Of a stretch of DNA of 64,000 nt, positions 34,124 to 64,000 are shown in pieces. How positions within the stretch are numbered: position 1 is the stretch's first letter; each line of letters opens with the position of its first letter. This DNA is from a virus. Lineage: Duplodnaviria; Heunggongvirae; Uroviricota; Caudoviricetes. The notes beneath the pieces were generated by a model that worked only from the letters and a program-made list of their open reading frames with translations, searched no databases and was not told the DNA's origin. The translations under genes were made by a program, and so were the position numbers. Location: positions 109,076-173,075 of IMG/VR virus record IMGVR_UViG_3300033121_001869; one strand, given 5' to 3'.

Positions 34124-35236
34124 TTAAATCGAGGTAAGGAATATCTTTCGATTAGTTCTATCAATCGCTAAAACTTTAACTCTTATTTCTTGATCAGGTA
34201 GAAATTTTCTACCCAATTTTTCCAATTCAGATGAGTGTATTAAACCCATTGTCTCGTCATCCAATAAGATTAAGGTTCCAAAGTTTTTATTATCTTTAAC
34301 CCTACCATCAATAACTTGTCCAATTTTAATATTATCCCATAGTGATTCACGAATAACTTGTGTTAGGATAATTTTGTCTTTAATAATTTCCTTAACATAG
34401 AAGTCAATTTCCATACCAGGTCGTATATCAGAAATTCTTTCTCTCCAATCAGACTGAATATTAGCCTTATGAATCATTCCTGTTAGACACTCATTAAATT
34501 CAACAAAAACACCAAATGGAGTTGTACCCGTAACATGACCATTATATACCGTTCCTGTCTTCAGTTCTTCAATTGCTTGTGGTATAAGTGTTTTTAAATA
34601 CTTTCTACGGCTAACAATATAAGTTCCTTCTTGGTCAGAATATGATTCAATCATAGCTTCGATTTCCTTCCCGACAATTGAATTTGGATCGTATAATTTA
34701 TTTATACCCGCCAAAGTATTTGGCATAAATCCCGGTAATGTAATACCATCATGTAAAATATCAACGTCATATCCAGCTGGATTCAAATTTTTAATTTGAA
34801 TCATAACAACTAAATCTTCGTCTAGTGATTTTAAATGTTCATGAGCTCTTGACTCATAAATACCACAAATAGATCCTTGTAAATAGTAATTTTCCTCATT
34901 AACTGAAACAAGTAAAATATCAATTCTATCACCAATTTGTGTATTTTTTAAATACTTAACCTCACTGATTCTATTTTCAATATAAACATCATCTTTAAAT
35001 CCATCAATGGAAAAAACATGTTGATTAGCAGAAATTCCCTTGTATATCCCCGAAACAATTTCATTCTCTACGGGTTGGTTAATTTGTACGTTGGTTAGTA
35101 ATTTTAATAAATTTTGGTATTCGGGTGTGTTGGGATATTTAACTTTACGACCTCGACTTTTCCTTTTTTGATCCTGTAATATTAGATCGTCCCAAAATTG
35201 TTTTTCATCAATTTCAATTGATTTATTTTCTATCAT
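34124..35236 (-). CDS. ribosomal protein bS1-like protein with multiple S1 RNA-binding domains (truncated relative to bacterial S1)
   Basis: Several S1 OB-fold repeats. Domain 1 GIYKGISANQHVFSIDGFKDDVYIE...ESRAHEHL parallels E. coli S1 GTVVAIDKDVVLVDAGLKSE...REKAKRHEAW. Later domains carry G.V.G....FG.FV...L.G.IH signatures. Confidence 0.7.
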   Translation of the reverse strand: MIENKSIEIDEKQFWDDLILQDQKRKSRGRKVKYPNTPEYQNLLKLLTNVQINQPVENEIVSGIYKGISANQHVFSIDGFKDDVYIENRISEVKYLKNTQIGDRIDILLVSVNEENYYLQGSICGIYESRAHEHLKSLDEDLVVMIQIKNLNPAGYDVDILHDGITLPGFMPNTLAGINKLYDPNSIVGKEIEAMIESYSDQEGTYIVSRRKYLKTLIPQAIEELKTGTVYNGHVTGTTPFGVFVEFNECLTGMIHKANIQSDWRERISDIRPGMEIDFYVKEIIKDKIILTQVIRESLWDNIKIGQVIDGRVKDNKNFGTLILLDDETMGLIHSSELEKLGRKFLPDQEIRVKVLAIDRTNRKIFLTSI

Positions 35237-41711: not shown

Positions 41712-41952
41712 AGATGATGGATTAGATGTAAATATTGATTATAGTTCGGATAGAAAGCTAATTGTAGTAAAAATAAAAGATCCTTTGGAAATTTACGGAC
41801 ATTTATATGTTTTAGAACATAAAAAAGAAATGAGGGAAATGATTGATAGATTATTATCTATTGATAATAATATAATCTCATCTAAACTATATACAAGTGA
41901 TAAATCTCTAATACTGTATATTCGAGTGGATAAACTTGATAAAATTATTTAA
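41635..41952 (+). CDS. hypothetical protein (opposite strand, between two large structural genes)
   Basis: A 105-aa ORF filling the gap between the minus-strand genes. It conflicts with the extended N-terminus of the 1644-aa ORF. Confidence 0.25.
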   Translation: MRFIKRINELSDNRIDFLWDFFIEAKDDGLDVNIDYSSDRKLIVVKIKDPLEIYGHLYVLEHKKEMREMIDRLLSIDNNIISSKLYTSDKSLILYIRVDKLDKII

Positions 41953-49689: not shown

Positions 49690-50073
49690 ATGTTTACAAC
49701 AATAATTATTGCAATTCTGTGTTTTATTTTTGGATTTTTTATTGGAAAAATAACTGAAAATTCAAAAAAAGTCGAACCTCAATATCTGAGAAGAGGAATC
49801 TCTGATAAAGTATATACTTTATATCGTGATGGTATAAAAAGAGAGGATGTTCATGTGCAAATTGAAGTTGGTGAAATTGAAAGAACCAATACAAAATCCA
49901 AAATAGTATCACTCAATTTAATATTTGATGATTCCTCACACAATAGTTATGGGAATAAAGAAAAGATAAAATCTCTTATGGATAATAGTTGGGTCGAATC
50001 AAATTCAATAGAATGGATTGAAGATAATCTAAACGATAAAAGAAATCAAAAAATTGATCAAATATTAAAATAA
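49690..50073 (+). CDS. hypothetical membrane-anchored protein
   Basis: N-terminal hydrophobic helix FTTIIIAILCFIFGFFIG. Confidence 0.45.
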   Translation: MFTTIIIAILCFIFGFFIGKITENSKKVEPQYLRRGISDKVYTLYRDGIKREDVHVQIEVGEIERTNTKSKIVSLNLIFDDSSHNSYGNKEKIKSLMDNSWVESNSIEWIEDNLNDKRNQKIDQILK

Positions 50074-50150
50074 AAATTATTTATAAATTAGTTAAAAATA
50101 AAGAATTAGAATTTTCCAAGCATCTTTGTTATATTGGGGATGACCCATTA

Positions 50151-50369
50151 TTGGAACGATTCAAGAGATATATTCTAGTAGAATGTGAATACTCAGGAGA
50201 TAACAAAAAAGAAAAAGTATTTCTAATTCATGACATAATGAAAAATAAAACAATTACAAGAAACGATGATCCGAATAAACCATTACATGCAAATTTAGAG
50301 GATTTCACAGATGATTTGGATATTTGGATATTAAATAACAGACATAAAAAATTAAATTCACTATTATGA
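50151..50369 (+). CDS. hypothetical protein
   Basis: ORF of 72 aa with a TTG start in the track. Confidence 0.3.
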   Translation: MERFKRYILVECEYSGDNKKEKVFLIHDIMKNKTITRNDDPNKPLHANLEDFTDDLDIWILNNRHKKLNSLL

Positions 50370-50566
50370 AAACCCAAAAATTACTGAAAAAATTAGGATA
50401 TGGATATTCTATATCATATAACGAATACACAAAAAAATACTTTGTGTATAAAAATGGAGACTGGTCACTTGGAACCGAAATAAAACCTGACTCGAAGATT
50501 TCCTATCATAAAAAATTAAAAAAATCTATAAAATTATATTTAAAAAGGTTTAAAAAATCCACATAA
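50366..50566 (+). CDS. hypothetical protein
   Basis: ORF of 66 aa, Lys-rich. Confidence 0.3.
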   Translation: MKTQKLLKKLGYGYSISYNEYTKKYFVYKNGDWSLGTEIKPDSKISYHKKLKKSIKLYLKRFKKST

Positions 50567-50667
50567 GATAACAAAACTTTTTGAATATATATTTTATAAT
50601 ATTAATTGTGCTATTGTGTAAAACAACACACAAATTTAAGTGCAAATAAAAAAAAATAAACGGCAAT

Positions 50668-51279
50668 ATGACATCGAAGGCAATTTTTTTCCCAGAACAA
50701 GAACAATTTTTTAAAGAAAGAACAGGTAAGGATTTTATATTTTTTTATCAAAAATACTATCCAAAACTACTTTACTACACATCAAAGATGTGTTTATCAG
50801 CTAAAATGGATTCTGCTAAAGCAGAGGACATCTCCACAGATTCATTTCTAATCGCATTTGAAAAAATCGATAAATATGAAAAAGAAAAAGCTCAATTCTC
50901 AACATGGCTATTTACGATAGCTAGAAATCTTATGCTACAAGAAATAAAAAACAATGGCAAAACAATGTCAATGGATATTGAAGTAGATGATGAGGGAACA
51001 ACAATGAAAGATTTTCTAAAAGAGGCAGAATCGGAGCAACCAAGACAAAATCTAATTGAGAAAAAAGCAGAAATAATGCTTAAACATATTTCTCAACTAA
51101 AAGAACCCTATAAACAAGTAATTGAAATGAGGGAAATTAAAAAAATGGCATATAAAGATATTGCCAGTCATTTAGGCAAAAACCTATCTACAATTAAATC
51201 GCAAATAAGAAACGGTAGAGCTATTCTAATTGCAGAATCTGAAAAGGAATTCGCACAACTTGAAGAAATGTATCTATAA
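50668..51279 (+). CDS. RNA polymerase sigma-70 family factor (ECF-like: regions 2 and 4)
   Basis: Region 2 FSTWLFTIARNLMLQEIK and a region 4 helix-turn-helix YKDIASHLGKNLSTIKSQIRNGRAIL. Confidence 0.7.
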   Translation: MTSKAIFFPEQEQFFKERTGKDFIFFYQKYYPKLLYYTSKMCLSAKMDSAKAEDISTDSFLIAFEKIDKYEKEKAQFSTWLFTIARNLMLQEIKNNGKTMSMDIEVDDEGTTMKDFLKEAESEQPRQNLIEKKAEIMLKHISQLKEPYKQVIEMREIKKMAYKDIASHLGKNLSTIKSQIRNGRAILIAESEKEFAQLEEMYL

Positions 51280-51296
51280 AAAAATAATAAAATAAA

Positions 51297-51608
51297 ATGG
51301 CAGTTAAAGTAACAGATGAAAATTTTAAAGACTTCACATCAAATGGTGTGGCTTTAGTGGATATTTATGCAGAATGGTGCGGACCTTGTAAAGTCGTTGG
51401 ACCAATTGTTGAACAATTATCCAATGAGTATGATAACGTGAAAATTGGAAAATTAGATGCAGACGAAAATAAAGAGACAACACTTGAATTAGGAGTTCGT
51501 AGTATTCCAACAATACTAATCTATAAAAATGGTGAAATCGTTGAAAAACATGTTGGAGCAGCATCCAAATCACATTTAAAATCATTAATTGATAAACATT
51601 TGATTTAA
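51297..51608 (+). CDS. trxA: thioredoxin
   Basis: WCGPCK active site in the expected thioredoxin fold, about 103 aa. Confidence 0.85.
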   Translation: MAVKVTDENFKDFTSNGVALVDIYAEWCGPCKVVGPIVEQLSNEYDNVKIGKLDADENKETTLELGVRSIPTILIYKNGEIVEKHVGAASKSHLKSLIDKHLI

Positions 51609-52195
51609 TGTATGTTATTGATAGAATATTAAATTCTAATACTACGCTAATAGGACATGATGCCCGAAATGAAATTTCAGTTGAAAAAATACTAAATTCC
51701 ATTCCGGGCATTGTTTCTTTTGGAAAAGATACAGAAATAACCGATCACGAAATACTAAATTATTTTGATTCGGTTTCACATATTCGAAATTATAAAATTT
51801 CACTACTTAAGAACGAAAACATAATAATATCAGTATATTTAAATAATCTTATCTTTGAAAAAGATGATAACTTAGTAATGGGATTCCCAGAATTTAAATC
51901 GAAAAAAATGAAGAATTTTTTATCAACTCTTCAAAGTAGGATTTATCTATTAAGTTGTGAAAATTCAATTAAAATTAAATTGGTTTTAGTAACTTCTGTT
52001 AATAAAACATTTCTTCCCTCTGGTCAATCAATAGTACTAAAAGGAGGTGACTTTATGTTATATATGTGTGATGTAGCTATACAAATAATTGAAGATAAAA
52101 TTCAAATAATTAAGGATAGACAATATTCTGAAAAAAATTTTCATCTAAAAGAAGAAATAAGAGAATTATCAATTAATCAAATATTAAATGAATAA
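51608..52195 (+). CDS. hypothetical protein
   Basis: ORF of 195 aa. Confidence 0.45.
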   Translation: MYVIDRILNSNTTLIGHDARNEISVEKILNSIPGIVSFGKDTEITDHEILNYFDSVSHIRNYKISLLKNENIIISVYLNNLIFEKDDNLVMGFPEFKSKKMKNFLSTLQSRIYLLSCENSIKIKLVLVTSVNKTFLPSGQSIVLKGGDFMLYMCDVAIQIIEDKIQIIKDRQYSEKNFHLKEEIRELSINQILNE

Positions 52196-52838
52196 ATCAC
52201 AAGTAGAAATATTATCAAAAATAAATATTAAGTCTGATATAAAAACCTCGGGATTTATATGGTTAAATGATGATATAAAATATAAAATTATACAGAATGT
52301 GACCATGACTGAAATATCTAACTTATATCCAAAGATATTAGTAGATCTTTTTAAAAATGGATTAATTCCACAATCTGAATTTGATAATATATCAAAAGTA
52401 AATTTTATATTAAATAATAAAGAACTTCTAAAAAAAACAGAAGATTGGCAAAATCTTAAATTTTTTGTAAATTCTTATTACGGAAAATTATCGGATCCTT
52501 TTAATAATATAAATGAAAAATATGAAGGTATAATATCAACCAAACGACTACAAAAATATATTGAAATGGAATATACTAATCTATTAAGCCTAAATAATAA
52601 TATTTTATATATTGATACTGATATTATATTTAGCCAAGGTGATATTATTACAAACAATATATTCGATATACAACCAATAAAAGAAAATGCAAATATATTT
52701 CTAATCGAATCAATTAAGAAATATTTCTATCATGATGGAGATAATTATGTAATAAGAGGCAAAATAGATATAAACAAATATAAACCCGAAATACAATCTA
52801 TATTTAGAGATCAAAAACTAAATAAATTAGGAGTATGA
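52188..52838 (+). CDS. hypothetical protein
   Basis: ORF of 216 aa. Confidence 0.45.
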   Translation: MNKSQVEILSKINIKSDIKTSGFIWLNDDIKYKIIQNVTMTEISNLYPKILVDLFKNGLIPQSEFDNISKVNFILNNKELLKKTEDWQNLKFFVNSYYGKLSDPFNNINEKYEGIISTKRLQKYIEMEYTNLLSLNNNILYIDTDIIFSQGDIITNNIFDIQPIKENANIFLIESIKKYFYHDGDNYVIRGKIDINKYKPEIQSIFRDQKLNKLGV

Positions 52839-53083
52839 AAATAATCTGTACAGATAATGTTGAAAGATTAGGAGGTATGGGATTTAGACATAGTGATGTT
52901 ACTATCGGTAAAACCTATGATTGTATATTAATTGAAGAAATATTATCTACCGATAACACCTTCACCTATTTGAAATATAAAATAAAAAATGATGATGGTA
53001 GATTAGTATCTAAACCTACTGAGCTTTTTGATACCATTGAGGAAAATCGTAATAAAAAATTATGTCAATTGGATATAATTTAG
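52835..53083 (+). CDS. hypothetical protein
   Basis: ORF of 82 aa. Confidence 0.4.
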   Translation: MKIICTDNVERLGGMGFRHSDVTIGKTYDCILIEEILSTDNTFTYLKYKIKNDDGRLVSKPTELFDTIEENRNKKLCQLDII

Positions 53084-53091
53084 TATCTTTG
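53084..53091 (+). promoter_or_regulatory. TATCTTTG (-7-like) element upstream of the structured smpB leader
   Basis: TAnnTTTG match immediately 5' of the structured element. Confidence 0.3.
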
Positions 53092-53093
53092 TG

Positions 53094-53155
53094 AAAAGTA
53101 GGAAGTAGGTGTGGCGCAACCTGTAAACGGCAGAACCTGTTTACCCTACTTTTTT
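53094..53155 (+). ncRNA. structured leader or attenuator-like RNA element upstream of smpB (or terminator of the upstream operon)
   Basis: Direct repeat GTAGG-AA-GTAGG gives two alternative partners for the downstream CCTAC. Inner hairpin GTAAAC-ggcagaacct-GTTTAC. Duplicated AACCTGT. A U6 run follows. Confidence 0.35.
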
Positions 53156-53167
53156 AATAGAAATAAA

Positions 53168-53611
53168 ATGAAAATAGTTAATAGAAAAGCATATTATGAT
53201 TATCATGTACTCGATGAATTTATCGCCGGTATTATGCTTTCTGGATCTGAAGTAAAGTCATTAAGACAAAGTGATGTTAATTTTAATGATGCATATATTA
53301 TTTTCAGTAAAGGCGAATTATTCATAAAAAATATGAGAATAGCATCGTATAAAGATGCAACATATAATAATCATGATGAAAAGCGTGATAAGAAAATCCT
53401 CTTAAAAAAGAGAGAGATAAATAAGATTTCAAGAGAGATAAGTGAGAAAGGAATATCTGTTATACCACTTGAAATTTTCATGATAAAGAATCGTTTTAAA
53501 ATAAAAATTGGAATTTGTCGTGGTAAAAAGAATTGGAATAAAAAGGAAATTATAAAAACAAAAGATATTGAAAGAGATATAAAAAGAAATGAGGGTTTAA
53601 AATTAAAATAA
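53168..53611 (+). CDS. smpB: SsrA-binding protein SmpB
   Basis: YHVLDEFIAGIMLSGSEVKSLRQSDVNFNDAYIIFSKGELFIKNMRIASYK...HDEKRDKKILLKKREINKI...KGISVIPLEIFMIKNRFKIKIGICRGKK aligns along its length with bacterial SmpB. The ATG at 53168 is preferred over the GTG at 53111. Confidence 0.8.
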   Translation: MKIVNRKAYYDYHVLDEFIAGIMLSGSEVKSLRQSDVNFNDAYIIFSKGELFIKNMRIASYKDATYNNHDEKRDKKILLKKREINKISREISEKGISVIPLEIFMIKNRFKIKIGICRGKKNWNKKEIIKTKDIERDIKRNEGLKLK

Positions 53612-53716
53612 ATTTGTGGTAATACATAGTAAGTTAATAAGTTATTAGTAGAATCTCCTTGATAAACCTTACGAATCCACACTTAAATTAATATAATAAT
53701 AAATGAAGGAGAATAT

Positions 53717-53740
53717 GGTCGGATTTATCCGACCTTTTTT
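53717..53740 (+). terminator. intrinsic terminator after smpB
   Basis: GGTCGGAT-TT-ATCCGACC followed by TTTTTT. Confidence 0.7.
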
Positions 53741-53780
53741 ATTTTATATTTTTAATATATAAGTAAATAAAAATTTTTAA

Positions 53781-54056
53781 ATGAGAAATATTCGTGATTT
53801 TAAATCCTTCATAAATGAATCATCTGACAATATTGATGATGAATTTACACAAATAGTTAATAAATCAATAGAATTGGGACCAATTCGTGATGATGATAAA
53901 GAATCATTTAAAAAATATATTACCGACTTCAAAAATTCTGATTCTAATGGAAAAAATAAAATATTATCTTCATTCTCAGAGGATTTAGAGTGGGCATATG
54001 AAGATATTTATGATGAAGTATCTGATTTAATTAACTCTCTTGCTAAAAAGATATAA
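53781..54056 (+). CDS. hypothetical protein
   Basis: ORF of 91 aa, acidic. Confidence 0.4.
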   Translation: MRNIRDFKSFINESSDNIDDEFTQIVNKSIELGPIRDDDKESFKKYITDFKNSDSNGKNKILSSFSEDLEWAYEDIYDEVSDLINSLAKKI

Positions 54057-54089
54057 ATTTTTAGTATATTTACATAAAATTTATAAAAA

Positions 54090-54494
54090 ATGACTCTTAA
54101 AGAAAAAATTAATGCTGACTTCATGACAGCATTTAAGGAGAAAAGATTTGAAGTAAAATCTTTACTTGGTACAATTAAAGGTGAAATCCAAACCACAGAA
54201 AAAAATCTAAGAATAGAAAATCTTTCTGATGAGGAAGTATCTAAAATTCTTAACAAATTTGTCAAGAATTTAAAAGAAAATATAAAATTGGTTAATGATG
54301 ATAAATCAAAATTTGAGCTTGAAATTATTGAATCATACTTGCCAAAAAATCTTTCAGAAGAGGAAATTGAAATTAAAATCAACTCACTTGTTAATTCAGG
54401 TATTAAAAATATTGGATTAATAATGAAAGAATTTTCTAATTTGCCTGTTGATAAAAAATTAGTATCTGATATAGCCAAAAAGCTAATTTCATGA
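54090..54494 (+). CDS. GatB/YqeY-domain protein
   Basis: MTLKEKINADFMTAFKEK...EIIESYLPKNLSEEEIEIKINSLV parallels YqeY MSLKEQI..DLK.AMKAKD...ILEEYLPQQLSEEEI. Confidence 0.7.
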   Translation: MTLKEKINADFMTAFKEKRFEVKSLLGTIKGEIQTTEKNLRIENLSDEEVSKILNKFVKNLKENIKLVNDDKSKFELEIIESYLPKNLSEEEIEIKINSLVNSGIKNIGLIMKEFSNLPVDKKLVSDIAKKLIS

Positions 54495-54709
54495 AAATAG
54501 ATACAAATGATGTCAGGACATGGCTTCGATATATTCATGAATATCTGATAGTCCGCAATGATGGAAGAACTTCCCAAATAAGGGAAGTTCTTTATTCAGA
54601 TCAAAAAGTAATTGAGGTGTATCGAAATCCATCTAAATTCATAGAATTTTACAATGATGCCTACCCTAATATTAAAACATTAGAGGAGTTTATACGTGAA
54701 CATAAATAA
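54491..54709 (+). CDS. hypothetical protein
   Basis: ORF of 72 aa. Confidence 0.35.
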   Translation: MKIDTNDVRTWLRYIHEYLIVRNDGRTSQIREVLYSDQKVIEVYRNPSKFIEFYNDAYPNIKTLEEFIREHK

Positions 54710-54732
54710 GATTTTTGAATAATATATAAAAA

Positions 54733-55863
54733 GTGAAGCATATAAAAAAATATAATGAATCGACATCATCGATTAAAATGCTTAGTATCTCAAATAGTAT
54801 TCTAAGCTTAATACCAAACCATAAAGTTGTCAATGATGAAGTTATTGTTGATGGTAATGTTGAGTTACAAGGTAAGAAGATAGATTCTATACCATTCAAA
54901 TTTTCAAAAATTAATGGGTATATAAATGTTAGAAACAATAATTTAACTTCATTTGAATTTTTACCAGAAGAATGTTCGGACTATATTATTTCTAAAAATC
55001 CAGGAGTAAAAAGTGGAATATTGGGAGATATATTCAATTTAATGTCAGACTATAATAATGAAATAAAAGGAGTATATAAATCACTATTTAATCTTTTTAT
55101 AAAAAAGTGTGTTCAATATGATTCTTGGCATAATGGAGAAAGTAATGATGTTGCCATTGAATGTGCTTGGATAGATACCAAAATCGAAAAATATAACATA
55201 AATAAGGATTCAATAATTTTTGGAATGCCTGAAATTCTCAATTTAGAAGATGAATATATTCTAAAGGATTTTTTTGAAATTAAAACTAAAAATTGGATAT
55301 CCGAACTGGTTGAGGATTTGGTAAATAAAATTAAATCAAACTCAGAGGATAAAGATGATGTAAGTGAGAAAATACCATTTTTTAAAATACTATACTATCT
55401 AATAAAAGATGATTTCGATAAGCAAATTGAAAAGATAGTTATTGATAAATATGATTTATCAGATATTTATAAAAAAATGGATAAAATACCACATATGAAT
55501 CCAAAAGAACTAAATGAATTTGTTTATTTAATGGGTAAAAAAATAATTAGAACAGATGATATAAAAGACAGAGACAACAATAATGATCTGTTTGTTTTCA
55601 TAGCCAAAGATAAATTCGTAAAATCTGGAGAAGCTTATAGAAAAACAATTGAAATTGAAAATTTATTAAAAATTGATTTATACGACCAATCAGATCTTGA
55701 ACAGGTTAATATGATGAGACTTCGATCTAGAATGAATGCATCAGATTTATATATGATAAGAATGCCAAAAGGTGTCTTTGATGAAGAGAAGGATTCATAT
55801 AGTGAAGATGAAATACCAGAATGGCTTTTAGATTTAATCGATAAAAAAAAGACAAAAATCTAA
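54733..55863 (+). CDS. hypothetical protein
   Basis: ORF of 376 aa. Confidence 0.5.
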   Translation: MKHIKKYNESTSSIKMLSISNSILSLIPNHKVVNDEVIVDGNVELQGKKIDSIPFKFSKINGYINVRNNNLTSFEFLPEECSDYIISKNPGVKSGILGDIFNLMSDYNNEIKGVYKSLFNLFIKKCVQYDSWHNGESNDVAIECAWIDTKIEKYNINKDSIIFGMPEILNLEDEYILKDFFEIKTKNWISELVEDLVNKIKSNSEDKDDVSEKIPFFKILYYLIKDDFDKQIEKIVIDKYDLSDIYKKMDKIPHMNPKELNEFVYLMGKKIIRTDDIKDRDNNNDLFVFIAKDKFVKSGEAYRKTIEIENLLKIDLYDQSDLEQVNMMRLRSRMNASDLYMIRMPKGVFDEEKDSYSEDEIPEWLLDLIDKKKTKI

Positions 55864-55873
55864 TATATAGAAC

Positions 55874-56311
55874 ATGGAACATTTGAAACTCTTTGAAGAT
55901 TTTAAAAATATAACTGAAGAAGAAATTGAAAATTACTTAAAAAGTAATTTCTCCTCAGATTGGTTTGATTCGGAATTGTCTGAGAGGGTATATGATTATA
56001 TCAGTGAAGATGAAGCTGAGGACTATGACGGTAATTTTGAAGAGGCTTATAAAAACTTATCAACTGGCGGTGCTATTGAGTATGACTTACTAAAAGTGAT
56101 GTCTGATGAAACATCATCACACTTTAAAATATCATCAGAAGAAAAAATAGATAAAAGAAGTATATCTGATATTTGTCATGATCATTTAATGGAAACTTGT
56201 GAGTGGTATGATAAATTTGTATTTAATAGGAAATCAACCGAACCATATAAAAGCTTCTTTGGAAATTTAGATTTAAATTTTGATAAAACCGATGATGGAA
56301 TTCAATTATAA
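55874..56311 (+). CDS. hypothetical acidic protein
   Basis: ORF of 145 aa, rich in Asp and Glu. Confidence 0.45.
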   Translation: MEHLKLFEDFKNITEEEIENYLKSNFSSDWFDSELSERVYDYISEDEAEDYDGNFEEAYKNLSTGGAIEYDLLKVMSDETSSHFKISSEEKIDKRSISDICHDHLMETCEWYDKFVFNRKSTEPYKSFFGNLDLNFDKTDDGIQL

Positions 56312-56317
56312 TTTTAT

Positions 56318-56325
56318 TATATTTG
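56318..56325 (+). promoter_or_regulatory. TATATTTG (-7-like) element 4 nt before the ATG of the membrane protein gene (possible leaderless mRNA)
   Basis: Exact TAnnTTTG match. Confidence 0.3.
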
Positions 56326-56329
56326 CTTA

Positions 56330-56686
56330 ATGAAAGATAAAATTGGAATTTGGACATCAATTATTTGCTTGATACATTGTTTAGTATTCCCAATACTTGC
56401 AACATCATTCCCAATATTTCTAAAACTTGATGCAAAGGTTGAAATTACACTATTTGTAATAGCATTTATCATAGGATCCTTATCATTTATTGATAATATA
56501 GTCAAACACAAATATTATCTATCGCTATTATTTTTCATAATAGGATTTATGTTAATATTCGTATCACTTTTTACATATCACCCTTTAACATATCCTGGAT
56601 TGCTATCATTAATAATGGCACATTATCTAAATTATAAAAAAATAAAAGAAAATGATGGATGTCACCCACATGGATGTAAACACTAA
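56330..56686 (+). CDS. small polytopic membrane protein with Cys/His-rich C-terminal tail (possible metal-binding or transport)
   Basis: Three to four hydrophobic helices, CLIHC in TM1, and a C-terminal DGCHPHGCKH. Confidence 0.5.
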   Translation: MKDKIGIWTSIICLIHCLVFPILATSFPIFLKLDAKVEITLFVIAFIIGSLSFIDNIVKHKYYLSLLFFIIGFMLIFVSLFTYHPLTYPGLLSLIMAHYLNYKKIKENDGCHPHGCKH

Positions 56687-56697
56687 AATTTAAAAAA

Positions 56698-57093
56698 ATG
56701 TCACACTGCATATCAATATACATCTTAAAAAAAGAAGAAATAAGAAATGAAAAAATCGATTCTATAATCGATGATAAGAAAAATCAAATTAAATTCACCG
56801 AAATGGATGAGGGTTTATTAGCAACAACTTATATACCAAATATTAAAAACTTCGCATCTAATAAAACAATTGCTAAAATTGAAACAGACTACTTTGGAGG
56901 ATTTGGAGATCAATCAGCAACACTATATGAAAATGGTGTAAAAGTGTTTGAAAAATCAGATCAAGTAGATAGATCATCCGAACCAATAAATGAAGTATTA
57001 AGAATTTTAGGTGTCAAAAAGAAAAATAATATGGATGAATTTGATACAATTGGACTAGGAAAGTATAGAACCAATCAAGATTTTAAACATTAA
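56698..57093 (+). CDS. hypothetical protein
   Basis: ORF of 131 aa. Confidence 0.45.
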   Translation: MSHCISIYILKKEEIRNEKIDSIIDDKKNQIKFTEMDEGLLATTYIPNIKNFASNKTIAKIETDYFGGFGDQSATLYENGVKVFEKSDQVDRSSEPINEVLRILGVKKKNNMDEFDTIGLGKYRTNQDFKH

Positions 57094-57127
57094 TCAAAAC
57101 TTAAAATATAATAGTATTATTAAAAGA

Positions 57128-57655
57128 ATGGCAAAAAAGATTTTCAAGAAAGAAAGAAAACATCGGATTAACAACGAAGTTAAATTTCCACAAGTTAGAA
57201 TTATAGGTGATTTTAACGGTGTGATAATGTCCTCATACGAGGCATATCAGATAGCACAGGATGAAGAAAAAGATTTAATTTTAATAAACGAAAACGCTAA
57301 TCCACCAGTTGTCAGAATTGAAGATTATGGAAAATTCATCTATGATCAAGAAAAAAAGGAAAAAGAGGCTAAAAAAATATCCAAAAAAACTGAATTAAAA
57401 GAAATATCATTATCTCTGACAATAGCAGATCATGACTTAGGAATTAAAGCTAAAAAAGCCAATGAATTTTTGGTGGATGGTGATAAAGTCAAACTTTCAC
57501 TCTTAATGAAGGGAAGACAAAACACAATGAAAGAGCAAGGAGAATTGGTTATGTTAAAATTTGCAACACTTGTTGAAAATCACGGAATTCCTGAAGCAAT
57601 GCCAAGGCTAGAAGGAAATAGATGGCACATGATTCTAAAACCAAAGAAAAAATGA
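57128..57655 (+). CDS. infC: translation initiation factor IF-3
   Basis: RINNEVKFPQVRIIGDFNGVIMSSYEAYQIAQDEEKDLILINENANPPVVRIEDYGKFIYD aligns to E. coli IF3 [63 protein letters not shown]. The C-terminal domain ends ...ILKPKKK. Confidence 0.8.
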   Translation: MAKKIFKKERKHRINNEVKFPQVRIIGDFNGVIMSSYEAYQIAQDEEKDLILINENANPPVVRIEDYGKFIYDQEKKEKEAKKISKKTELKEISLSLTIADHDLGIKAKKANEFLVDGDKVKLSLLMKGRQNTMKEQGELVMLKFATLVENHGIPEAMPRLEGNRWHMILKPKKK

Positions 57656-58071
57656 AAACATCCAGTGGCGTATTAATTACATTTAATAATAAAATATTAT
57701 TATGTCACCCAACTAATGCCTCTCATATAAGCACTTATTCACCACCAAAAGGACTGATAAATGAGGGTGAAAATCTAATAGATGCCGCAATAAGAGAATG
57801 TTTTGAAGAGACATCAATTAAATTAGACAAATCATTGATTGGTGATAGAGTATATGTGCCCTACTACAAGGGAAGTAAAATCTATAAAGAAGTTTTCCTA
57901 TTTAAGGTAAAAATAAACTCTCTTTCGGAAATTGGATTAGAAAATCTAATAATAGATAAAAATAAACTTCAACTTGATGAAGTAGATTGGGCTGGATTTA
58001 TTGATAAAAAGTCAGCTGAAAATAAAATATTCCATCGATTTAAACATATTTTACATGAAATTCTCGATTAA
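57652..58071 (+). CDS. Nudix hydrolase
   Basis: Nudix box GLINEGENLIDAAIRECFEETSI (Gx5Ex7REUxEExGU). The ATG overlaps the infC stop as ATGA. Confidence 0.65.
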   Translation: MKTSSGVLITFNNKILLCHPTNASHISTYSPPKGLINEGENLIDAAIRECFEETSIKLDKSLIGDRVYVPYYKGSKIYKEVFLFKVKINSLSEIGLENLIIDKNKLQLDEVDWAGFIDKKSAENKIFHRFKHILHEILD

Positions 58072-58315
58072 CATAGATGTTGAATTAACAAAAATTGAAA
58101 TTTCTTTTATAAAAAAACACTTTGTCAATAATAAAAAAACACATAACAGATTTTTCTTTTCAACTAATAATGAAGATAGAAGAACATTAGACAATTTATC
58201 CAAACATGAAGTGGTGTATTTTGATAATATGGGTAATATACATCTAACAATAATTGGAAATAATATTGTAGATATGTTAGACAGGGATAAAAAAATTAAT
58301 GATATACTAAAATGA
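58001..58315 (+). CDS. hypothetical protein (start uncertain)
   Basis: A 104-aa ORF overlapping the Nudix 3' end. An internal Met (MKFSINID) may be the real start. Confidence 0.3.
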   Translation: MIKSQLKIKYSIDLNIFYMKFSINIDVELTKIEISFIKKHFVNNKKTHNRFFFSTNNEDRRTLDNLSKHEVVYFDNMGNIHLTIIGNNIVDMLDRDKKINDILK

Positions 58316-58644
58316 ATTTAGATTTAAATAATCCAATATTTGTTCTATACATAAATGTTCATGGAATGTCAAGACAAAGAGCTGAAGAAGCTGCAGCTCA
58401 AATGTTAAAAAATATTAATTATGATAATATAACTACATGGTGCATTCCAATAGAAAATCAAGATTCCAGAATTGAATTGATATGGAAGGGACATCAATAT
58501 GAAATAGGATTGAGAAATCCATCAGAAATATCAAAAATTGAAGATAGAATCAAAATGATAATTGATATTACATCAAAAGGAGCATCGGAAATAGACATAA
58601 AGCAAAGACTACGAGAAATTTTAATTGGTGATATAATAGATTAA
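58312..58644 (+). CDS. hypothetical protein
   Basis: ORF of 110 aa. Confidence 0.4.
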   Translation: MNLDLNNPIFVLYINVHGMSRQRAEEAAAQMLKNINYDNITTWCIPIENQDSRIELIWKGHQYEIGLRNPSEISKIEDRIKMIIDITSKGASEIDIKQRLREILIGDIID

Positions 58645-58658
58645 TTTTTATATTAAAA

Positions 58659-58690
58659 TTTGGATTTTCACAAAAGAATCCGTATATTTG
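58659..58690 (+). promoter_or_regulatory. candidate Bacteroidetes-type promoter TTTG-N20-TATATTTG
   Basis: TTTG at 58659..58662 and TATATTTG at 58683..58690. The palindrome TTTGTAT-TAA-ATACAAA overlaps. A 44-aa ORF starts at 58707. Confidence 0.4.
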
Positions 58691-58706
58691 TATTAAATAC
58701 AAAGAT

Positions 58707-58841
58707 ATGACAAACAACCAATTATCCATTGAACAAGTTCGTGAAAATACACAATTTACAAGTGATAATCAATATGCGGCATTTAATCAAATGTCCGAAG
58801 ACTTCTTATTTCGTCAGTTAATTGAAGAAATTAATTCTTAA
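58707..58841 (+). CDS. small hypothetical protein (44 aa)
   Basis: MTNNQLSIEQVRENTQFTSDNQYAAFNQMSEDFLFRQLIEEINS. It follows the candidate promoter and is below the track size cutoff. Confidence 0.25.
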   Translation: MTNNQLSIEQVRENTQFTSDNQYAAFNQMSEDFLFRQLIEEINS

Positions 58842-59193
58842 ATTTATTATCAATAAATTCATAAATTTCTTTCTTTAGTAATTGTGAACAATCTAACTCT
58901 CGTCGCTCACCATTTTGTGAAATAAAAATCTCAAAAGAATCTTTAGGATACCCCATAAAATTAGAATCCTTTTTCTTTTTTAAAGAAATGGTTTTATCTT
59001 TAAATATCACAGAATATCCCGTTAAATGTCTACCAATAGAATAATTTGAGTTATTCTTAATGGTGTTAATTAATTCTTTAGCAAAAGCAGAATCACTTGT
59101 TTTACTTTTAAAATTCCAAAATTCGTTTAATTCTCTCAATTCACCAATAGTTTTAATTTTGGTTTTTCCATCTTTATTTAAAATAGCCTTCAA
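58831..59193 (-). CDS. hypothetical protein
   Basis: ORF of 120 aa. Confidence 0.45.
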   Translation of the reverse strand: MKAILNKDGKTKIKTIGELRELNEFWNFKSKTSDSAFAKELINTIKNNSNYSIGRHLTGYSVIFKDKTISLKKKKDSNFMGYPKDSFEIFISQNGERRELDCSQLLKKEIYEFIDNKFKN

Positions 59194-59365
59194 TCCATCC
59201 GGAAAATTTAAAATGTAGTTTTTACAATCTACATCTTTAAATTCAGAAACAGAATCAATAATATCTATTAATAAGAAAGAATGTTTAGTTCCTTATATGC
59301 CTCATGATATTCAACTTTTTAAAGTATATCTTATATATTAACTATAAAATTTAAATTACTTAAAA

Positions 59366-60061
59366 ATGAATACTGGATTATCAAAAAAAGATATAAACAA
59401 ATATATGGATAACATAAAAGGATTAACTCCATATATTCTAGAAGAAAGAGAATTAAGAGCAACTCAAATTGATGTTTTTAGTAGGCTATTAAGAGATAGA
59501 ATAATCTGGGTATCAGGAGTTGTTGATCAACACATGTCAGATATTGTGCAAGCTCAATTGTTATTCTTAGATTCAGTTGAAACTAAAGATATTACATTAT
59601 ACATAAATTCACCTGGCGGATCTGTACTATGTGGATTGGGAATAATTGATCTTATGAATTATATTTCATCTGATGTAGCAACAGTTAATATAGGTATGTG
59701 TGCCTCTATGGGTTCTGTTTTACTTTCATCGGGAACAAAGGGTAAAAGATCATCACTACTATATTCAAAAGTAATGACTCATCAGGTTTCACACGGAACA
59801 GAAGGAAATATACAAGATACAAGAATTAATCAAATGGAAGCAGAAAAATACAACTATCTTTTATTTAAAATTCTTGCACAAAATTGTGGTAAAACAGTCG
59901 ATGAAGTTTTAGATTTCTCCAGAAGAGACAGATGGTATAACTCCGATGAAGCACTTTCATTTGGTTTAATTGATGAGGTAATAGGATCAGATAAAATAAC
60001 AATAACCTCAATGTTAGAGGGATTTGATGACTATTATAATAAAGAAGTTCTGAAAAAATAA
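59366..60061 (+). CDS. clpP: ATP-dependent Clp protease proteolytic subunit ClpP
   Basis: Catalytic Ser in GMCASMGS, His in MTHQ, and the conserved RIIWVSG...YINSPGGSV core. Confidence 0.85.
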   Translation: MNTGLSKKDINKYMDNIKGLTPYILEERELRATQIDVFSRLLRDRIIWVSGVVDQHMSDIVQAQLLFLDSVETKDITLYINSPGGSVLCGLGIIDLMNYISSDVATVNIGMCASMGSVLLSSGTKGKRSSLLYSKVMTHQVSHGTEGNIQDTRINQMEAEKYNYLLFKILAQNCGKTVDEVLDFSRRDRWYNSDEALSFGLIDEVIGSDKITITSMLEGFDDYYNKEVLKK

Positions 60062-60088
60062 TCTGCATATTTATTTAATATATAAAGC

Positions 60089-60664
60089 ATGCAAAAATTT
60101 ACCAACCTAAAGACAAATGTTGATTTAACAGATAGTGATAAAGATGAGATTTTATATAAAAATGAATATGTATCACTTATAAAGTATGAAGATTGGACTA
60201 TAATAAAAGAATCTGATTTTGTAGTCTGTATAATTTATCTAATTGAAGAAAATCAATTCATATTAAGGAATGAATACATCCCAACATTTAAATATGTTGA
60301 TGGTCAAGAATATCATCTAACTGTATTAAGTGGATGTGTTAAAAAAGGAGAAATGAATGAAAGGGCTCTTTTAAGGGAAATTGAAGAAGAGGCTGGAATT
60401 GTTATCGATCCGAATTTCAAAATAGAATTTTTAAAGCCTTTATTTGTATCAAAAGGACATGCTTCAAAATATTATCCAGCAATAATACAATTAACTCAAA
60501 AAGATTATCACGAAGTTGTTGCAAAAGGTGATGGATCTAAATCTGAAAAAATGAGCCAATGTGTTAAACTTGATATTAAATATATCAATTCTGTTAATAC
60601 ATCTGATTTAATAACTGATTATATGATTGAAAAATTCAAAAACTATTTAAATATCTATTCGTGA
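60089..60664 (+). CDS. Nudix hydrolase (ADP-ribose pyrophosphatase-like)
   Basis: Nudix box SGCVKKGEMNERALLREIEEEAGIVI. Confidence 0.65.
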   Translation: MQKFTNLKTNVDLTDSDKDEILYKNEYVSLIKYEDWTIIKESDFVVCIIYLIEENQFILRNEYIPTFKYVDGQEYHLTVLSGCVKKGEMNERALLREIEEEAGIVIDPNFKIEFLKPLFVSKGHASKYYPAIIQLTQKDYHEVVAKGDGSKSEKMSQCVKLDIKYINSVNTSDLITDYMIEKFKNYLNIYS

Positions 60665-61059
60665 AAAAGTTTAGTAAAATAAATGAAGAAATAAAATTTG
60701 GAAGAAATGAAATTCCAGAAAAGGATATCTTATATCAAGATTCGGATTTTTTTATCAAATTTGATGGATATCCAGTTAGTCCAGGTCATATATTAATAAT
60801 CACAAAAGGCGAAGAAGTAACCTATTTTGATTTATCAGATTCTAAAAAGAATAAATTATCAGTCCTACTAAATAAAGCAAAAGAAATAATTGAATCAAAT
60901 CATAATCCAGATGGATACAATATTGGTATGAATTGTGGAGAAGCTTCTGGTCAAACCATAATGCAATTTCACTGCCACTTAATTCCAAGGTATAAAGGCG
61001 ATGTTGAAAATCCAAGAGGTGGTGTTCGACACTCTGTGATCGGAAAGGGATTTTACTAA
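60661..61059 (+). CDS. HIT (histidine triad) family nucleotide hydrolase or transferase
   Basis: HxHxHxx motif QFHCHLIP near the C-terminus. Overlaps the upstream Nudix stop. Confidence 0.75.
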   Translation: MKKFSKINEEIKFGRNEIPEKDILYQDSDFFIKFDGYPVSPGHILIITKGEEVTYFDLSDSKKNKLSVLLNKAKEIIESNHNPDGYNIGMNCGEASGQTIMQFHCHLIPRYKGDVENPRGGVRHSVIGKGFY

Positions 61060-61517
61060 TCTAATAGTTTAACAAACTTAAATTCTTCAGAATAATACCC
61101 ATTACTTGTTCCAAAGAATCGAAGATCTACATAACCCTTAATTGTTGCAAATGTATAAAATGTCCAAGTAAAACTATCATCTACAGATCCCTTTTTTGGC
61201 TTATCACCCTCATTATAATTAGTTTTTACTTCAGCTTTTAATATTGGAGGCCCAATTAAATCATCTAAATCTCCAATAATATCTTCCAACCAACAAGATT
61301 CGCAACAATCCTGATCATGGAAGAAAACATATCTTTCCTCATCATTATCTGTTGATACAACAAATAACATCTCATAATCTGAGTATTTTATATCATATAT
61401 TCTTTTTCCAAGTAGATCAGTTACTTGTGCCTCCTCATATGACCCAGTTAATAAAGAGTCATCAGTTTTAAATTCACTATTATCTTCAAGAGATTCAAAT
61501 TTCTTCAAATATTTCAT
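61056..61517 (-). CDS. hypothetical acidic protein
   Basis: ORF of 153 aa. Confidence 0.45.
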   Translation of the reverse strand: MKYLKKFESLEDNSEFKTDDSLLTGSYEEAQVTDLLGKRIYDIKYSDYEMLFVVSTDNDEERYVFFHDQDCCESCWLEDIIGDLDDLIGPPILKAEVKTNYNEGDKPKKGSVDDSFTWTFYTFATIKGYVDLRFFGTSNGYYSEEFKFVKLLD

Positions 61518-61533
61518 ATTTTATATATTAAAA

Positions 61534-61555
61534 AAGGAGTCTAAAAAGACTCCTT
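61534..61555 (-). terminator. intrinsic terminator after the SHOCT-domain gene
   Basis: AAGGAGTC-TAAAAA-GACTCCTT hairpin flanked by A/T runs. Confidence 0.55.
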
Positions 61556-61567
61556 GATAGCTGTTCA
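61556..61567. repeat. left arm of the 12-bp inverted repeat ATAGCTGTTCAA flanking the SHOCT-domain gene
   Basis: Perfect reverse complement of 62587..62598 (TTGAACAGCTAT). Confidence 0.5.
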
Positions 61568-61576
61568 ATTATTTTT

Positions 61577-62503
61577 TTAAATTCTAGAAAGAATTTCTTT
61601 CTTTTTCATTTGAAATTCTTCATCTGTCAATATGCCACCATCTTTTAAATCTTTCAATTTAATTAATAAATCAGCTGCTTGATGGCTACTAGTAAGTGAT
61701 TTTTTCTCAACCTCAACTGGTTTTCTTGATGTTGGTAATAAATTATATACAATATGATGAATATAATTTTTTTCAAAATCCATATCAACTTCCATAAATT
61801 GTTGTTGAGATGGAAGCCCTTTTTCCACTCTACCGGTTTCAATACTATCAGATGTGGTAAACTCTCCAGTGCTGGAATTAAAAGAGCAATTTGTCAGATT
61901 TAAATCTGATGTTCCAGATGTAAGTGTAAATGAATTTGAATAATTAGAATTGGTGGAATTACAAGTTGTCAAATTACCACCAAGTGTTGTGGAAGAGTAA
62001 GATATTGTAGTTCCGGTTGTTCCATACCACCAAGGATTATAAGGATTCCAGGGATTTCTTGGATACCACCAAGGGTATGCAGGATAATATTCTCTAACAA
62101 TGACTTCTTTATACTTATCTCGCCAATTGTTAATAGATACTGCTTGTTCCTTATAAAAGAAAACTTCCATCACTCCATTATTTTCAATAGATTCAAGTGT
62201 TGTTTCATTATTTTCAACTTGATAGGTCTGAAATATAAATTTCTTTTTATCATCAACAAAACAATCTAGGTAGAATCTTTGTCCTGGTTTAACAATAAGT
62301 CCTGTTTTTGATATTGATTGGCCATTTAGTCTTATATCTGCCAATATACATTCTTTAAGTGGATTAAATAATTCTATTTGGAACTCCTCATTGTTTTCCA
62401 AATAAATGTTACTATCACTTTTAATTGATTTTCTGCCTTTATCTTTTGGATTTACTATCCATGCGCCTGGCAAATTAGCGCCTTTTTTCGCTTGTACTTT
62501 CAT
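61577..62503 (-). CDS. hypothetical protein with C-terminal SHOCT domain and Pro/Trp/Tyr-rich low-complexity segment
   Basis: C-terminal ADLLIKLKDLKDGGILTDEEFQMKKKEIL matches the SHOCT pattern. Middle segment YPAYPWWYPRNPWNPYNPWWY. Confidence 0.5.
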   Translation of the reverse strand: MKVQAKKGANLPGAWIVNPKDKGRKSIKSDSNIYLENNEEFQIELFNPLKECILADIRLNGQSISKTGLIVKPGQRFYLDCFVDDKKKFIFQTYQVENNETTLESIENNGVMEVFFYKEQAVSINNWRDKYKEVIVREYYPAYPWWYPRNPWNPYNPWWYGTTGTTISYSSTTLGGNLTTCNSTNSNYSNSFTLTSGTSDLNLTNCSFNSSTGEFTTSDSIETGRVEKGLPSQQQFMEVDMDFEKNYIHHIVYNLLPTSRKPVEVEKKSLTSSHQAADLLIKLKDLKDGGILTDEEFQMKKKEILSRI

Positions 62504-62586
62504 ACTATTCTTTTATTTTTTGTCCTATATCTTTGAATTCTTTCAAATTCTTAAAGTATCACAAGAATACTCGACATAAGATGGCT

Positions 62587-62598
62587 TGAACAGCTATA
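62587..62598. repeat. right arm of the 12-bp inverted repeat (TTGAACAGCTAT)
   Basis: Perfect reverse complement of 61556..61567. Confidence 0.5.
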
Positions 62599-62609
62599 TT
62601 ATATATTGA

Positions 62610-63494
62610 TTATTTAATCTCTTGTTGTACAAAAATATCATTCCATTTAAAATTTAAATTGAGTTCCTCCAAGACATTACTTATTTCTTCTTTAACGCTT
62701 GTTTTATCTAATCTTTTATGGTTTGTGATTCGTGTGGTATCATACTTATTATGTGATAATCTAAATATTAAATTACTCGAATTATACAATTTTTTAAAAA
62801 AATAGGGAGTTATATCAAAAATAAATTGCTTATCCAAATTCATTGGCATTCTTATAGAATCTGCACTGATAGGATCTAATATCCTATCTTCTTTTTTATA
62901 TCCTGAAAATATATCAAAATCCCAATCTCCATGTCTTCGACAAAATGCATCAAAATAATGTTTAACAAATACATTTGGATCTATAGATGAAACATAATCA
63001 ATAATTTCAGATTTATTTTTATCATAAGAATAAATCAAATCATCATAGATATTTTTCTTATAGAAAGGAATAACAATTTTTATACCACTCATTTCCTTTG
63101 GTGTTCCATTATAGAAACTAAAATATTCATCAATATCAATTTCCTTTTTAAAATAGATAATATTATTATTTAGCTTTAAATATCCACTATTATCAATTAG
63201 TTTTTTAACTAATCTATATAAATGTATTTTCATATCATCATTATATTTAGGATCAAAAAATATATCATATTTTATATTAGATCCAGTACGATCATTTTCA
63301 AATTCATGAATAATGAATTTATTTTTAGATATCTTTTCTAATTCTTCCTTGGACGATCTAGCTGCAACTACCTGCTGAGATATATCATTATAATAAACCT
63401 TCACAATATCAAAACTATCACATATCTCATCAATATATTCATCAATATTCGATAAATCCTCATAATATGACTCGAAAATTTTTAAAATTCTCAT
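62610..63494 (-). CDS. hypothetical protein
   Basis: ORF of 294 aa. Confidence 0.5.
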   Translation of the reverse strand: MRILKIFESYYEDLSNIDEYIDEICDSFDIVKVYYNDISQQVVAARSSKEELEKISKNKFIIHEFENDRTGSNIKYDIFFDPKYNDDMKIHLYRLVKKLIDNSGYLKLNNNIIYFKKEIDIDEYFSFYNGTPKEMSGIKIVIPFYKKNIYDDLIYSYDKNKSEIIDYVSSIDPNVFVKHYFDAFCRRHGDWDFDIFSGYKKEDRILDPISADSIRMPMNLDKQFIFDITPYFFKKLYNSSNLIFRLSHNKYDTTRITNHKRLDKTSVKEEISNVLEELNLNFKWNDIFVQQEIK

Positions 63495-63555
63495 GTGTTA
63501 TATATTAAACTTTATGTCAATTATCAAATACAACTAAAAATATAATTATCAAAAA

Positions 63556-63972
63556 ATGATACAAAAAGGAAACACGGTAAAAGTTCATTATACCGGAAAA
63601 TTAGAAGACAATAAAGTATTTGATTCTTCTGCTGGAAGACAGCCAATTGAATTTCAAGTTGGAAATCAACAAGTAATTGAGGGATTTGAATCTGCAGTTT
63701 TAGGATTAAATAAAGGAGACAAAACAACCATCACAATTGATCCTGATAAAGCATATGGTGACATTCGTCCAGAATTAATAATGGCTGTTCCAAAAAATCA
63801 AGTCCCACAAGATGTTAAAGTTGGAGTTCAACTTCAAGGAGTTGGTCAAAATGGAGAGCCATTCAATGTAACAGTTCGAGAAATAAATGAATCAACTGTA
63901 ACATTAGATGCTAATCACCCATTAGCGGGAAAGAAATTAATCTTCGATATTGAAGTTGTGGATGTTGTGTAA
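63556..63972 (+). CDS. FKBP-type peptidyl-prolyl cis-trans isomerase (SlyD/FkpB-like)
   Basis: VKVHYTGKLEDNKVFDSS...PIEFQVG.QQVIEGFE.AVLGL.KGDK motifs of the FKBP fold. Confidence 0.8.
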   Translation: MIQKGNTVKVHYTGKLEDNKVFDSSAGRQPIEFQVGNQQVIEGFESAVLGLNKGDKTTITIDPDKAYGDIRPELIMAVPKNQVPQDVKVGVQLQGVGQNGEPFNVTVREINESTVTLDANHPLAGKKLIFDIEVVDVV

Positions 63973-64000
63973 TGAAAAGGTTATCACTAAATATAAATTT

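Follow-up and report, generated by a model that had tools for sequence, protein, structure and literature searches.

Initiation factor 3 (IF3) governs which start sites bacterial ribosomes accept, and a gene for this factor in a viral genome raises the question of what a phage would do with a copy of its own. Such a gene lies at 57128..57655 on the plus strand of a 64,000-nucleotide stretch of a Caudoviricetes genome (IMG/VR record IMGVR_UViG_3300033121_001869, positions 109,076 to 173,075; the whole stretch is called the window here). The gene could encode a standard factor, a factor re-tuned to the messages of the phage, a poison for host translation or a passenger. The reading favored here, at a probability of roughly 0.65, is that it encodes a functional, canonical IF3 of a huge, AT-rich phage lineage that is related to the Mahaphages and lacks Shine–Dalgarno (SD) sequences, and that this IF3 would be made outside the feedback loop of the host.

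The open reading frame (ORF) runs from an ATG to a TGA, and its product of 175 residues is a full-length, canonical two-domain IF3. Both Pfam domains score well over their cutoffs: IF3_N (PF05198) reaches 76.8 bits against 26.9 across profile positions 1-70 of 70, and IF3_C (PF00707) reaches 85.5 bits against 34.8 across positions 2-86 of 86. The infC equivalog of NCBIfam (TIGR00168) matches at 152.3 bits (cutoff 60; model positions 2-170 of 170), and the PHROG family phrog_9787, named 'translation initiation factor', matches at 142 bits. The ORF also aligns end to end with the PDB chains 5me0_Y (E 6e-33), 5lmn_X (E 2e-28) and 8jsg_A (E 2e-25), which we take, judging by their sequences and entry codes, to be the IF3s of Geobacillus, Thermus and Escherichia coli. 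A first-pass annotation of this DNA had already called the gene a full-length IF3 with similarity in both domains, and the Pfam, NCBIfam, PHROG and PDB matches uphold that call; the diverged paralogue without a C-terminal domain that it had named as the alternative was not seen.

The predicted fold agrees with the profiles. An AlphaFold2 (AF2) model built on 18 members of the phage clade described below has a mean predicted local distance difference test (pLDDT) score of 83 and shows an N-terminal domain, a helix rich in Lys and Glu, and a C-terminal domain of beta-alpha-beta-alpha-beta-beta layout. By Pfam, the N-terminal domain comprises residues 14-81 (57167..57370, +), with modeled strands and a helix in residues 23-65. 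The linker helix comprises residues 67-84 (57326..57379, +) and includes Y72, the equivalent of E. coli Y75, and the C-terminal domain comprises residues 89-173 (57392..57646, +) and is modeled at a pLDDT of about 90. Neither Pfam nor AF2 indicates extra domains or truncations. Both domains, the equivalog score, the two-domain layout with a helical linker and the conserved residues of the IF3 family are all present.

These residues were assessed by a column-by-column comparison of 124 clade sequences with 208 IF3s from outside the clade, in E. coli numbering. The near-universal IF3 columns are all kept (N16, R25, A42, A46, D52, L53, P62, P63, Y70, K72, Y75, K79, K94, E95, D106, K110, F117, L118, G121, K123, K125, G132, R133, G141, P162, E166 and G167), and Y72 of the phage protein shows no variation across the phage clade. 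Among these columns, Y70, K72, Y75, D106, K110, R133, G141, E166 and G167 have roles known from IF3 mutagenesis. R24 and R63 of the phage protein correspond to R25 and R66 of E. coli, which are two of the three residues in the N-terminal domain that contact the elbow of the initiator tRNA (PMC9723500). The gene appears to be under strong purifying selection, with a ratio of nonsynonymous to synonymous substitution rates (dN/dS) of 0.026 against the 91%-identical homologue in locus L001, a pair for which dS is near saturation. Several substitutions were considered as signs of altered 30S binding and rejected. At R99S, Y107L and R116E, the phage residues Ser, Leu and Glu are the commonest in the 208 non-clade IF3s. 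The column of R129 is only about half Arg (49%) in the same set; Leu, the phage residue at this position, is rare there (7%).

Sequence comparison indicates that this IF3 has been inherited within a phage lineage and was not recently taken from a host. In a large protein database, 1127 relatives match at E <= 1e-10. The best 120 of them share 63-91% identity with the window IF3 and come from contigs of up to 480 kb; P0001, at 91% identity, is found on contigs of 226-444 kb. In IMG/VR, 49 viral contigs carry IF3 relatives at 36-70% identity. In an alignment of everything retrieved, identity to the window IF3 is 54-92% within the clade and no higher than 46% for any cellular sequence, and an exhaustive HMMER search of 1.84 billion representatives returned six sequences at 53% identity or more and all others at 50% or less. 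The clade has more than 100 members, found on metagenomic contigs only. This sharp gap in identity to all non-clade IF3s argues against a recent capture from a host. No cellular donor emerged from a scan of GTDB, which was biased by the two peptide patterns used and in which the best matches were at most 47% identical and came mostly from metagenome-assembled genomes of Clostridia, Bacilli and Patescibacteria. As a separate observation, IF3 matches of 44-46% identity and the same match extent (L030, L037-L042) occur in GTDB bins of unrelated taxa (Paludibacteraceae, Parasutterella, Lachnospiraceae and 'bacterium') from one study series, and most of them share an ATT 17 codons 5' of the conserved domain; this pattern suggests mis-binning, or else a mobile or contaminant contig shared among the bins.

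The phage genes differ from cellular infC in how they start and in what follows them. The infC start codon is AUU in E. coli and AUA in F. johnsoniae, which allows IF3 to repress its own synthesis (PMC7797042). The open frame 5' of the conserved domain was surveyed at 80 cellular and 56 phage loci. An ATG is on offer at 46 of the 56 phage loci, the remaining 10 having TTG or GTG, compared with 13 of the 80 cellular loci. Conversely, AUU, AUC or AUA is the sole possibility at 26 of the 80 cellular loci and at none of the phage loci. In the alignment, the ATG at 57128 coincides with the N-terminal Met conserved across the clade. In addition, rplT adjoins infC at 74 of the 80 cellular loci and at 0 of the 56 phage loci, the window included. 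The window gene therefore has neither trait of a cellular infC locus, that is, neither an AUU, AUA or AUC start nor a place in an infC-rpmI-rplT operon. With an ATG, TTG or GTG start and no rpmI-rplT operon, the phage IF3 would escape autoregulation. Its synthesis would thus be uncoupled from the IF3 feedback loop, and the added IF3 activity would lower the translation of host infC.

From these features we infer 30S binding, escape from autoregulation and a benefit to the phage. The C-terminal domain of the phage IF3 would bind the host 30S subunit and the N-terminal domain would contact the initiator tRNA, as in cellular IF3. Given its AUG start and its detachment from infC-rpmI-rplT, synthesis of the phage factor would not be limited by the autoregulatory loop, and its expression during infection could raise or maintain IF3 activity as host gene expression falls, while host IF3 synthesis would be lowered through the host's own feedback. 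The extra IF3 may keep 30S subunits free, aid recycling and re-initiation where phage genes are densely packed on polycistronic mRNAs, and hold initiation to the proper start sites on messages without SD anchoring. A general role of this kind has already been suggested for the IF1, IF3, S1 and S21 proteins of huge phages (PMC7162821). The context is supportive, as genes for SmpB, YqeY, an S1-like protein and a sigma factor lie nearby, and tRNA synthetases are encoded in L001.

The phage nature of the window, as presumed by the first-pass annotation, is borne out by its gene order, which matches that of phage genome LR756502 and of contigs of 226-480 kb, and by relatives in IMG/VR viral contigs. 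LR756502 is a curated circular phage genome of 642 kb, and genomes of at least 634 kb form the 'Mahaphage' clade, predicted to replicate in Bacteroidetes (PMC7162821). A 43-kb stretch of LR756502 (334802-377933, L136) keeps the gene order of the window at 46-69% protein identity; the common order includes a 1644-residue ORF, a 1057-residue ORF, ligase, sigma factor, thioredoxin, SmpB, YqeY and the S1-like protein. The 1057-residue protein (41945-45118, -) belongs to phrog_29329, a family of unknown function common to Lak, Tenacibaculum and other large phages. Two uncultured huge phages, LR745206 (635 kb) and LR756502, encode proteins 67% identical to it, and it has remoter kin in Lak (Prevotella), Tenacibaculum, Chryseobacterium and Flavobacterium phages. 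The 1644-residue ORF (36777-41711, -) has a marginal CBM_5_12 match only and no PHROG match. A nucleotide search with window positions 50000-64000 gave no match among 50,697 phage records. We conclude that the window belongs to a huge phage related to the Mahaphage LR756502.

The messages on which this IF3 would act lack SD sequences. SD cores at positions -20 to -4 are found in 2 of 74 window genes, against a background of 7%, and the leaders are rich in A and poor in G, with maxima of A near -3, -5/-6 and -12. A-rich leaders without SD sequences resemble those of SD-independent initiation in Bacteroidota. The first-pass annotation had also remarked that many genes appear to use TTG starts or to sit directly behind a promoter motif. 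The remark on TTG holds in that 14 ORFs have TTG as their first start, and falls in that most of these are artefacts of ORF extension, 10 of the 14 having an ATG 3-22 codons downstream. The remark on the motif proved well founded. The window contains 21 copies of the 9-mer TAATATATA, usually with T's just before it, and at 18 of these sites an ORF of 60 residues or more starts within the next 40 nt (baseline 11%). Ten of the sites are exactly 4-5 nt before the start codon (baseline 0.6%; binomial P about 1e-17), and a second group is 17-21 nt before it. The related IMG/VR loci show the same bimodal spacing, with 38 motifs at 4 nt and 17 at 5 nt (55 in total) and a broad peak at 18-27 nt, where the motif is followed by an A-rich stretch. 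Example sites of the (T)TTAATATATA motif are 6887-6895(-), 15194-15202(+), 24174-24182(+) and 54720-54728(+), with further sites at 60076-60084(+), 61522-61530(-) and 63499-63507(-) and in L087-L135 and L136. A terminator-like hairpin with a T-run often lies directly 5' of TAATATATA.

The motif is probably a phage promoter giving mRNAs that are leaderless or nearly so, or that carry a short A-rich leader. One copy (55861..55869, +), 4 nt before the ATG at 55874, is a candidate promoter for IF3. This copy probably heads the IF3 transcription unit; no terminator-like sites were found between it and the IF3 gene. The three genes that would be co-transcribed with IF3 from here (55874..57093, +) encode a 145-residue protein of unknown function (55874-56311, +), a MerC-like membrane protein (56330-56686, +; Pfam MerC, 70.4 bits), which is an unusual phage gene, and a 131-residue unknown (56698-57093, +). 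An ECF-type (extracytoplasmic function) sigma-70 family protein (50668-51279, +), which is 69% identical to its LR756502 counterpart and has a Bacteroidetes-type sigma subfamily among its best NCBIfam matches, is a candidate recogniser of TAATATATA. A literature search found no description of the TAATATATA/(T)TTAATATATA motif. Enrichment of the Bacteroidetes -7 motif TAnnTTTG across the window was considered and rejected (120 matches against 114.6 expected), and sigma-70-type promoter matches in the window are barely above those in shuffled sequence (73 against 60.5 +/- 7.3). A single element that fits TAnnTTTG, TATATTTG (56318-56325), is found 4 nt before the ATG of the MerC-family gene.

Several points weigh against a canonical IF3 made outside the host's feedback loop. 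The Fisher P values of the start-codon survey, 2e-7 for loci with non-canonical starts only and 9e-15 for ATG, overstate the difference, since the loci are phylogenetically non-independent. That the host belongs to the Bacteroidota is no more than probable. In LR756502, no IF3 is found within 5.4 kb beyond YqeY despite the same gene order, nor does this genome appear among the IF3 matches listed in phage records. The factor is therefore dispensable for this type of phage and variably present among close relatives. A literature search for functional work on any phage IF3 found no expression or biochemical study. Finally, in E. coli an excess of IF3 inhibits leaderless mRNAs, and IF3 is required for re-initiation by 70S scanning (PMC9031893). 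The inhibition of leaderless mRNAs sits awkwardly with the many phage genes in which the motif is 4-5 nt from the ATG.

The combination of an IF3 gene with many apparently leaderless genes raises the possibility of a specialised factor that re-tunes start choice toward leaderless or short-leader phage mRNAs without SD sequences, at the expense of host messages. The first-pass annotation, too, had proposed that a phage copy could shift initiation preferences. The motif directly before 10 window starts and 55 starts in related loci would fit such a factor, as would the second motif class with its 17-27 nt A-rich leader and the hairpins just 5' of the motif, which fit a promoter. About ten positions are invariant in the clade and rare in non-clade IF3s (for example P58E, C65V, M68E, H137M and M170W), and genes for an S1-like protein and a sigma factor are present in the window as well. 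A precedent exists in mitochondrial IF3 (mtIF3), which is reported to act on leaderless mRNAs (PMC11775629). However, the promoter role of the motif is itself read from sequence, the residues of documented role are unchanged, and LR756502 has the same motif-to-ATG architecture although it lacks IF3, so this architecture is independent of the factor. We regard a specialised IF3 as unlikely. More doubtful still is a fuller version, in which TAATATATA, 4-5 nt before the AUG, would drive a sizeable share of the phage genes as leaderless or nearly leaderless mRNAs in an SD-less host, the non-autoregulated IF3 would have co-evolved with the S1-like protein to permit or favor initiation on them, and, in the nearest relatives, a Nudix hydrolase encoded beside IF3 would trim 5' triphosphates. 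If it were true, the phage IF3 would be a counterpart of mitochondrial IF3 in the bacterial world and not a mere spare host factor.

A factor that acts by occupying host 30S subunits, as a dominant-negative or decoy that shuts down host translation, is very improbable. Escape from autoregulation could let the protein build up, and excess IF3 blocks some initiation events in E. coli, but the protein retains both domains and every conserved functional residue, has gained no domain and lost no part, and phage mRNAs translated on the same ribosomes would suffer too. Least credible is a passenger gene without a phage-specific role, or a cellular contig: the absence of IF3 from the close relative LR756502 and the failure to identify a capsid, portal or terminase gene within the 64-kb window speak for it, but the low dN/dS, a clade of high identity on contigs of up to 480 kb with nothing above 50% identity outside it, the gene order of a circular phage genome, the relatives in IMG/VR viral contigs and the lack of rplT beside IF3 speak against it.

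The canonical IF3 preferred here has a neighbor that attracted attention, since the first-pass annotation took the overlap of its stop codon with a Nudix start to suggest translational coupling. The overlap is real: read from the sequence, an ATGA at 57652..57655 (+) holds both the IF3 stop (TGA, 57653-57655) and the ATG (57652-57654) of a Nudix hydrolase gene (57652..58071, +; 139 residues, or 149 from an alternative ATG at 57622; Pfam NUDIX, phrog_1185). The downstream ORF matches PF00293 at 39.8 bits (cutoff 21.1), and its Nudix box, G-x5-E-x7-REUxEExGU, is intact except for Ser in place of the last Gly. The nearest solved structures are hydrolases of diadenosine tetraphosphate (Ap4A) and of ADP-ribose, and decapping enzymes match weakly. 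The in-frame ATG at 57622 would give an overlap of 34 nt; it is a by-product of the invariant Arg/Lys-Trp pair of IF3, whose codons join as A|TGG. Because IF3 coding dictates these letters, conservation of this ATG is uninformative on the Nudix start, and the relatives, which have this forced ATG as well, clearly start their downstream gene elsewhere. A start at 57652 is favored on this comparison.

The overlap is nevertheless not special to this pair. Elsewhere in the window, same-strand gene pairs overlap by 4 nt in five cases and by 1 nt in another five, and Nudix lies directly 3' of IF3 solely in the window and in L001-L003. In other clade members, a protein of 110-117 residues overlaps the IF3 stop through ATGA or TAATG (L004-L006, L087-L090). 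Its homologue in the window is a conserved 110-residue protein (58312..58644, +) with an N-terminal 'NL(E/D)NPIF' signature and no Pfam or NCBIfam match. As the gene for this protein adjoins IF3 in the other clade members, the Nudix gene and a small ORF were inserted between the two, and the Nudix gene is a recent insertion beside IF3. Translational coupling as a special link between IF3 and Nudix was accordingly rejected, the overlap type being common in the genome and the partner varying among relatives. Besides this Nudix gene, two further genes for possible nucleotide-pyrophosphate enzymes lie on the plus strand within 3.5 kb: a second Nudix-like protein (60089-60664, +) with weak NudE/ADP-ribose-type matches, and a HIT/HinT-like protein (60661-61059, +) that also weakly matches the DcpS C-terminal domain and whose gene overlaps the preceding one by 4 nt.

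Other genes of the neighborhood are conserved to different extents. The order MerC-x-IF3-Nudix is identical in L001 and L002. SmpB, the ribosome-rescue protein that binds transfer-messenger RNA (tmRNA), is encoded at 53111..53611 (+; Pfam 165.5 bits; NCBIfam 166 bits, cutoff 130) and is kept 5' of IF3 in L001 and L004-L006. A YqeY (GatB/YqeY-domain) protein follows at 54090..54494 (+; Pfam 57 bits), its place in the gene order being conserved. In P0056 (71% identity), IF3 is preceded by ligase, sigma factor, thioredoxin, SmpB, YqeY and a few small genes; in P0001, the run from sigma factor to IF3 is as in P0056, ClpP comes next, and the 20-kb locus includes tRNA synthetases. A multi-domain S1-like protein of 370 residues (34124..35236, -; Pfam S1, 74 bits) can be aligned with rpsA models for about 330 residues, at scores far below the equivalog cutoffs, and is 60% identical to the corresponding protein of LR756502; it is a candidate for an S1-like initiation protein of the phage. 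A reading of the small-ORF translations of the window, done without a profile search, brought out no IF1-like or S21-like protein. Searches with ARAGORN and for Rfam families found no tRNA, tmRNA or Rfam family in the 64-kb window; a tmRNA may lie elsewhere in the genome.

The window has 25-30% G+C content, and coding sequence takes up 93% of it when the standard code is used. Its genes include those for an SbcC-like nuclease subunit, an RNA ligase, an NAD-dependent DNA ligase, a primase and a tail-fibre-like protein with a weak match, and there is a giant ORF of 2312 residues (8171-15109, -) with no Pfam or PHROG match. The replication region also holds HNH, homing-endonuclease-like and Sir2-family (NAD-dependent deacetylase-like) genes, at 15208-15966, 24188-25006 and 17564-18289 (+).

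IF3 in huge and jumbo phages has already been published, is present in GenBank phage records and has its own PHROG. The IF3s of huge phages (Al-Shayeb et al. 2020, PMC7162821; soil huge phages, PMC11748809) are likewise full length, occur in genomes of more than 200 kb beside S1, SmpB and tRNA synthetases, and have been given the same proposed role of intercepting or redirecting host translation initiation (PMC7162821); those of LR756504, LR756501/3, LR756500 and LR756511 are just 36-42% identical to the window IF3. IF3 of jumbo phages has been described as well (Iyer et al. 2021, PMC7824862). The cultured jumbo phages Agrobacterium Atu_ph07, Serratia BF, Yersinia fHe-Yen9-04, Erwinia SNUABM and Sinorhizobium Phosso carry proteins of the same family annotated as IF-3, but these are 27-36% identical to the window IF3, have other neighborhoods and belong to phages of Proteobacteria hosts that use SD sequences. 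Bacterial InfC (E. coli P0A707; PDB 5me0, 5lmn, 8jsg) shares the architecture, linker helix and functional residues at 36-47% identity, and the window gene differs from it in its ATG in place of AUU, AUA or AUC, in the lack of a downstream rpmI-rplT and in the clade-specific substitutions. As reported, mtIF3 works without SD pairing and with leaderless mRNAs (PMC11775629, PMC9881170), a likeness of context only, and has N- and C-terminal extensions (PMC6321546); the phage IF3 has none, its 175 residues being the length of a bacterial IF3. What is new here is the phage-only clade, the canonical start together with the lost operon context, and the link to an SD-less and possibly leaderless genome.

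The locus thus offers a clean test case, in which a conserved, phage-only IF3 clade without an autoregulatory start is found in a genome without SD sequences. Should the phage IF3 act in the same way as that of its host, it would represent one more huge phage topping up the translation capacity of its host. Should the two differ, the phage factor would show viral reprogramming of start-site selection, and it would inform the role of IF3 in the SD-independent initiation of Bacteroidota, a question raised previously (PMC7797042).

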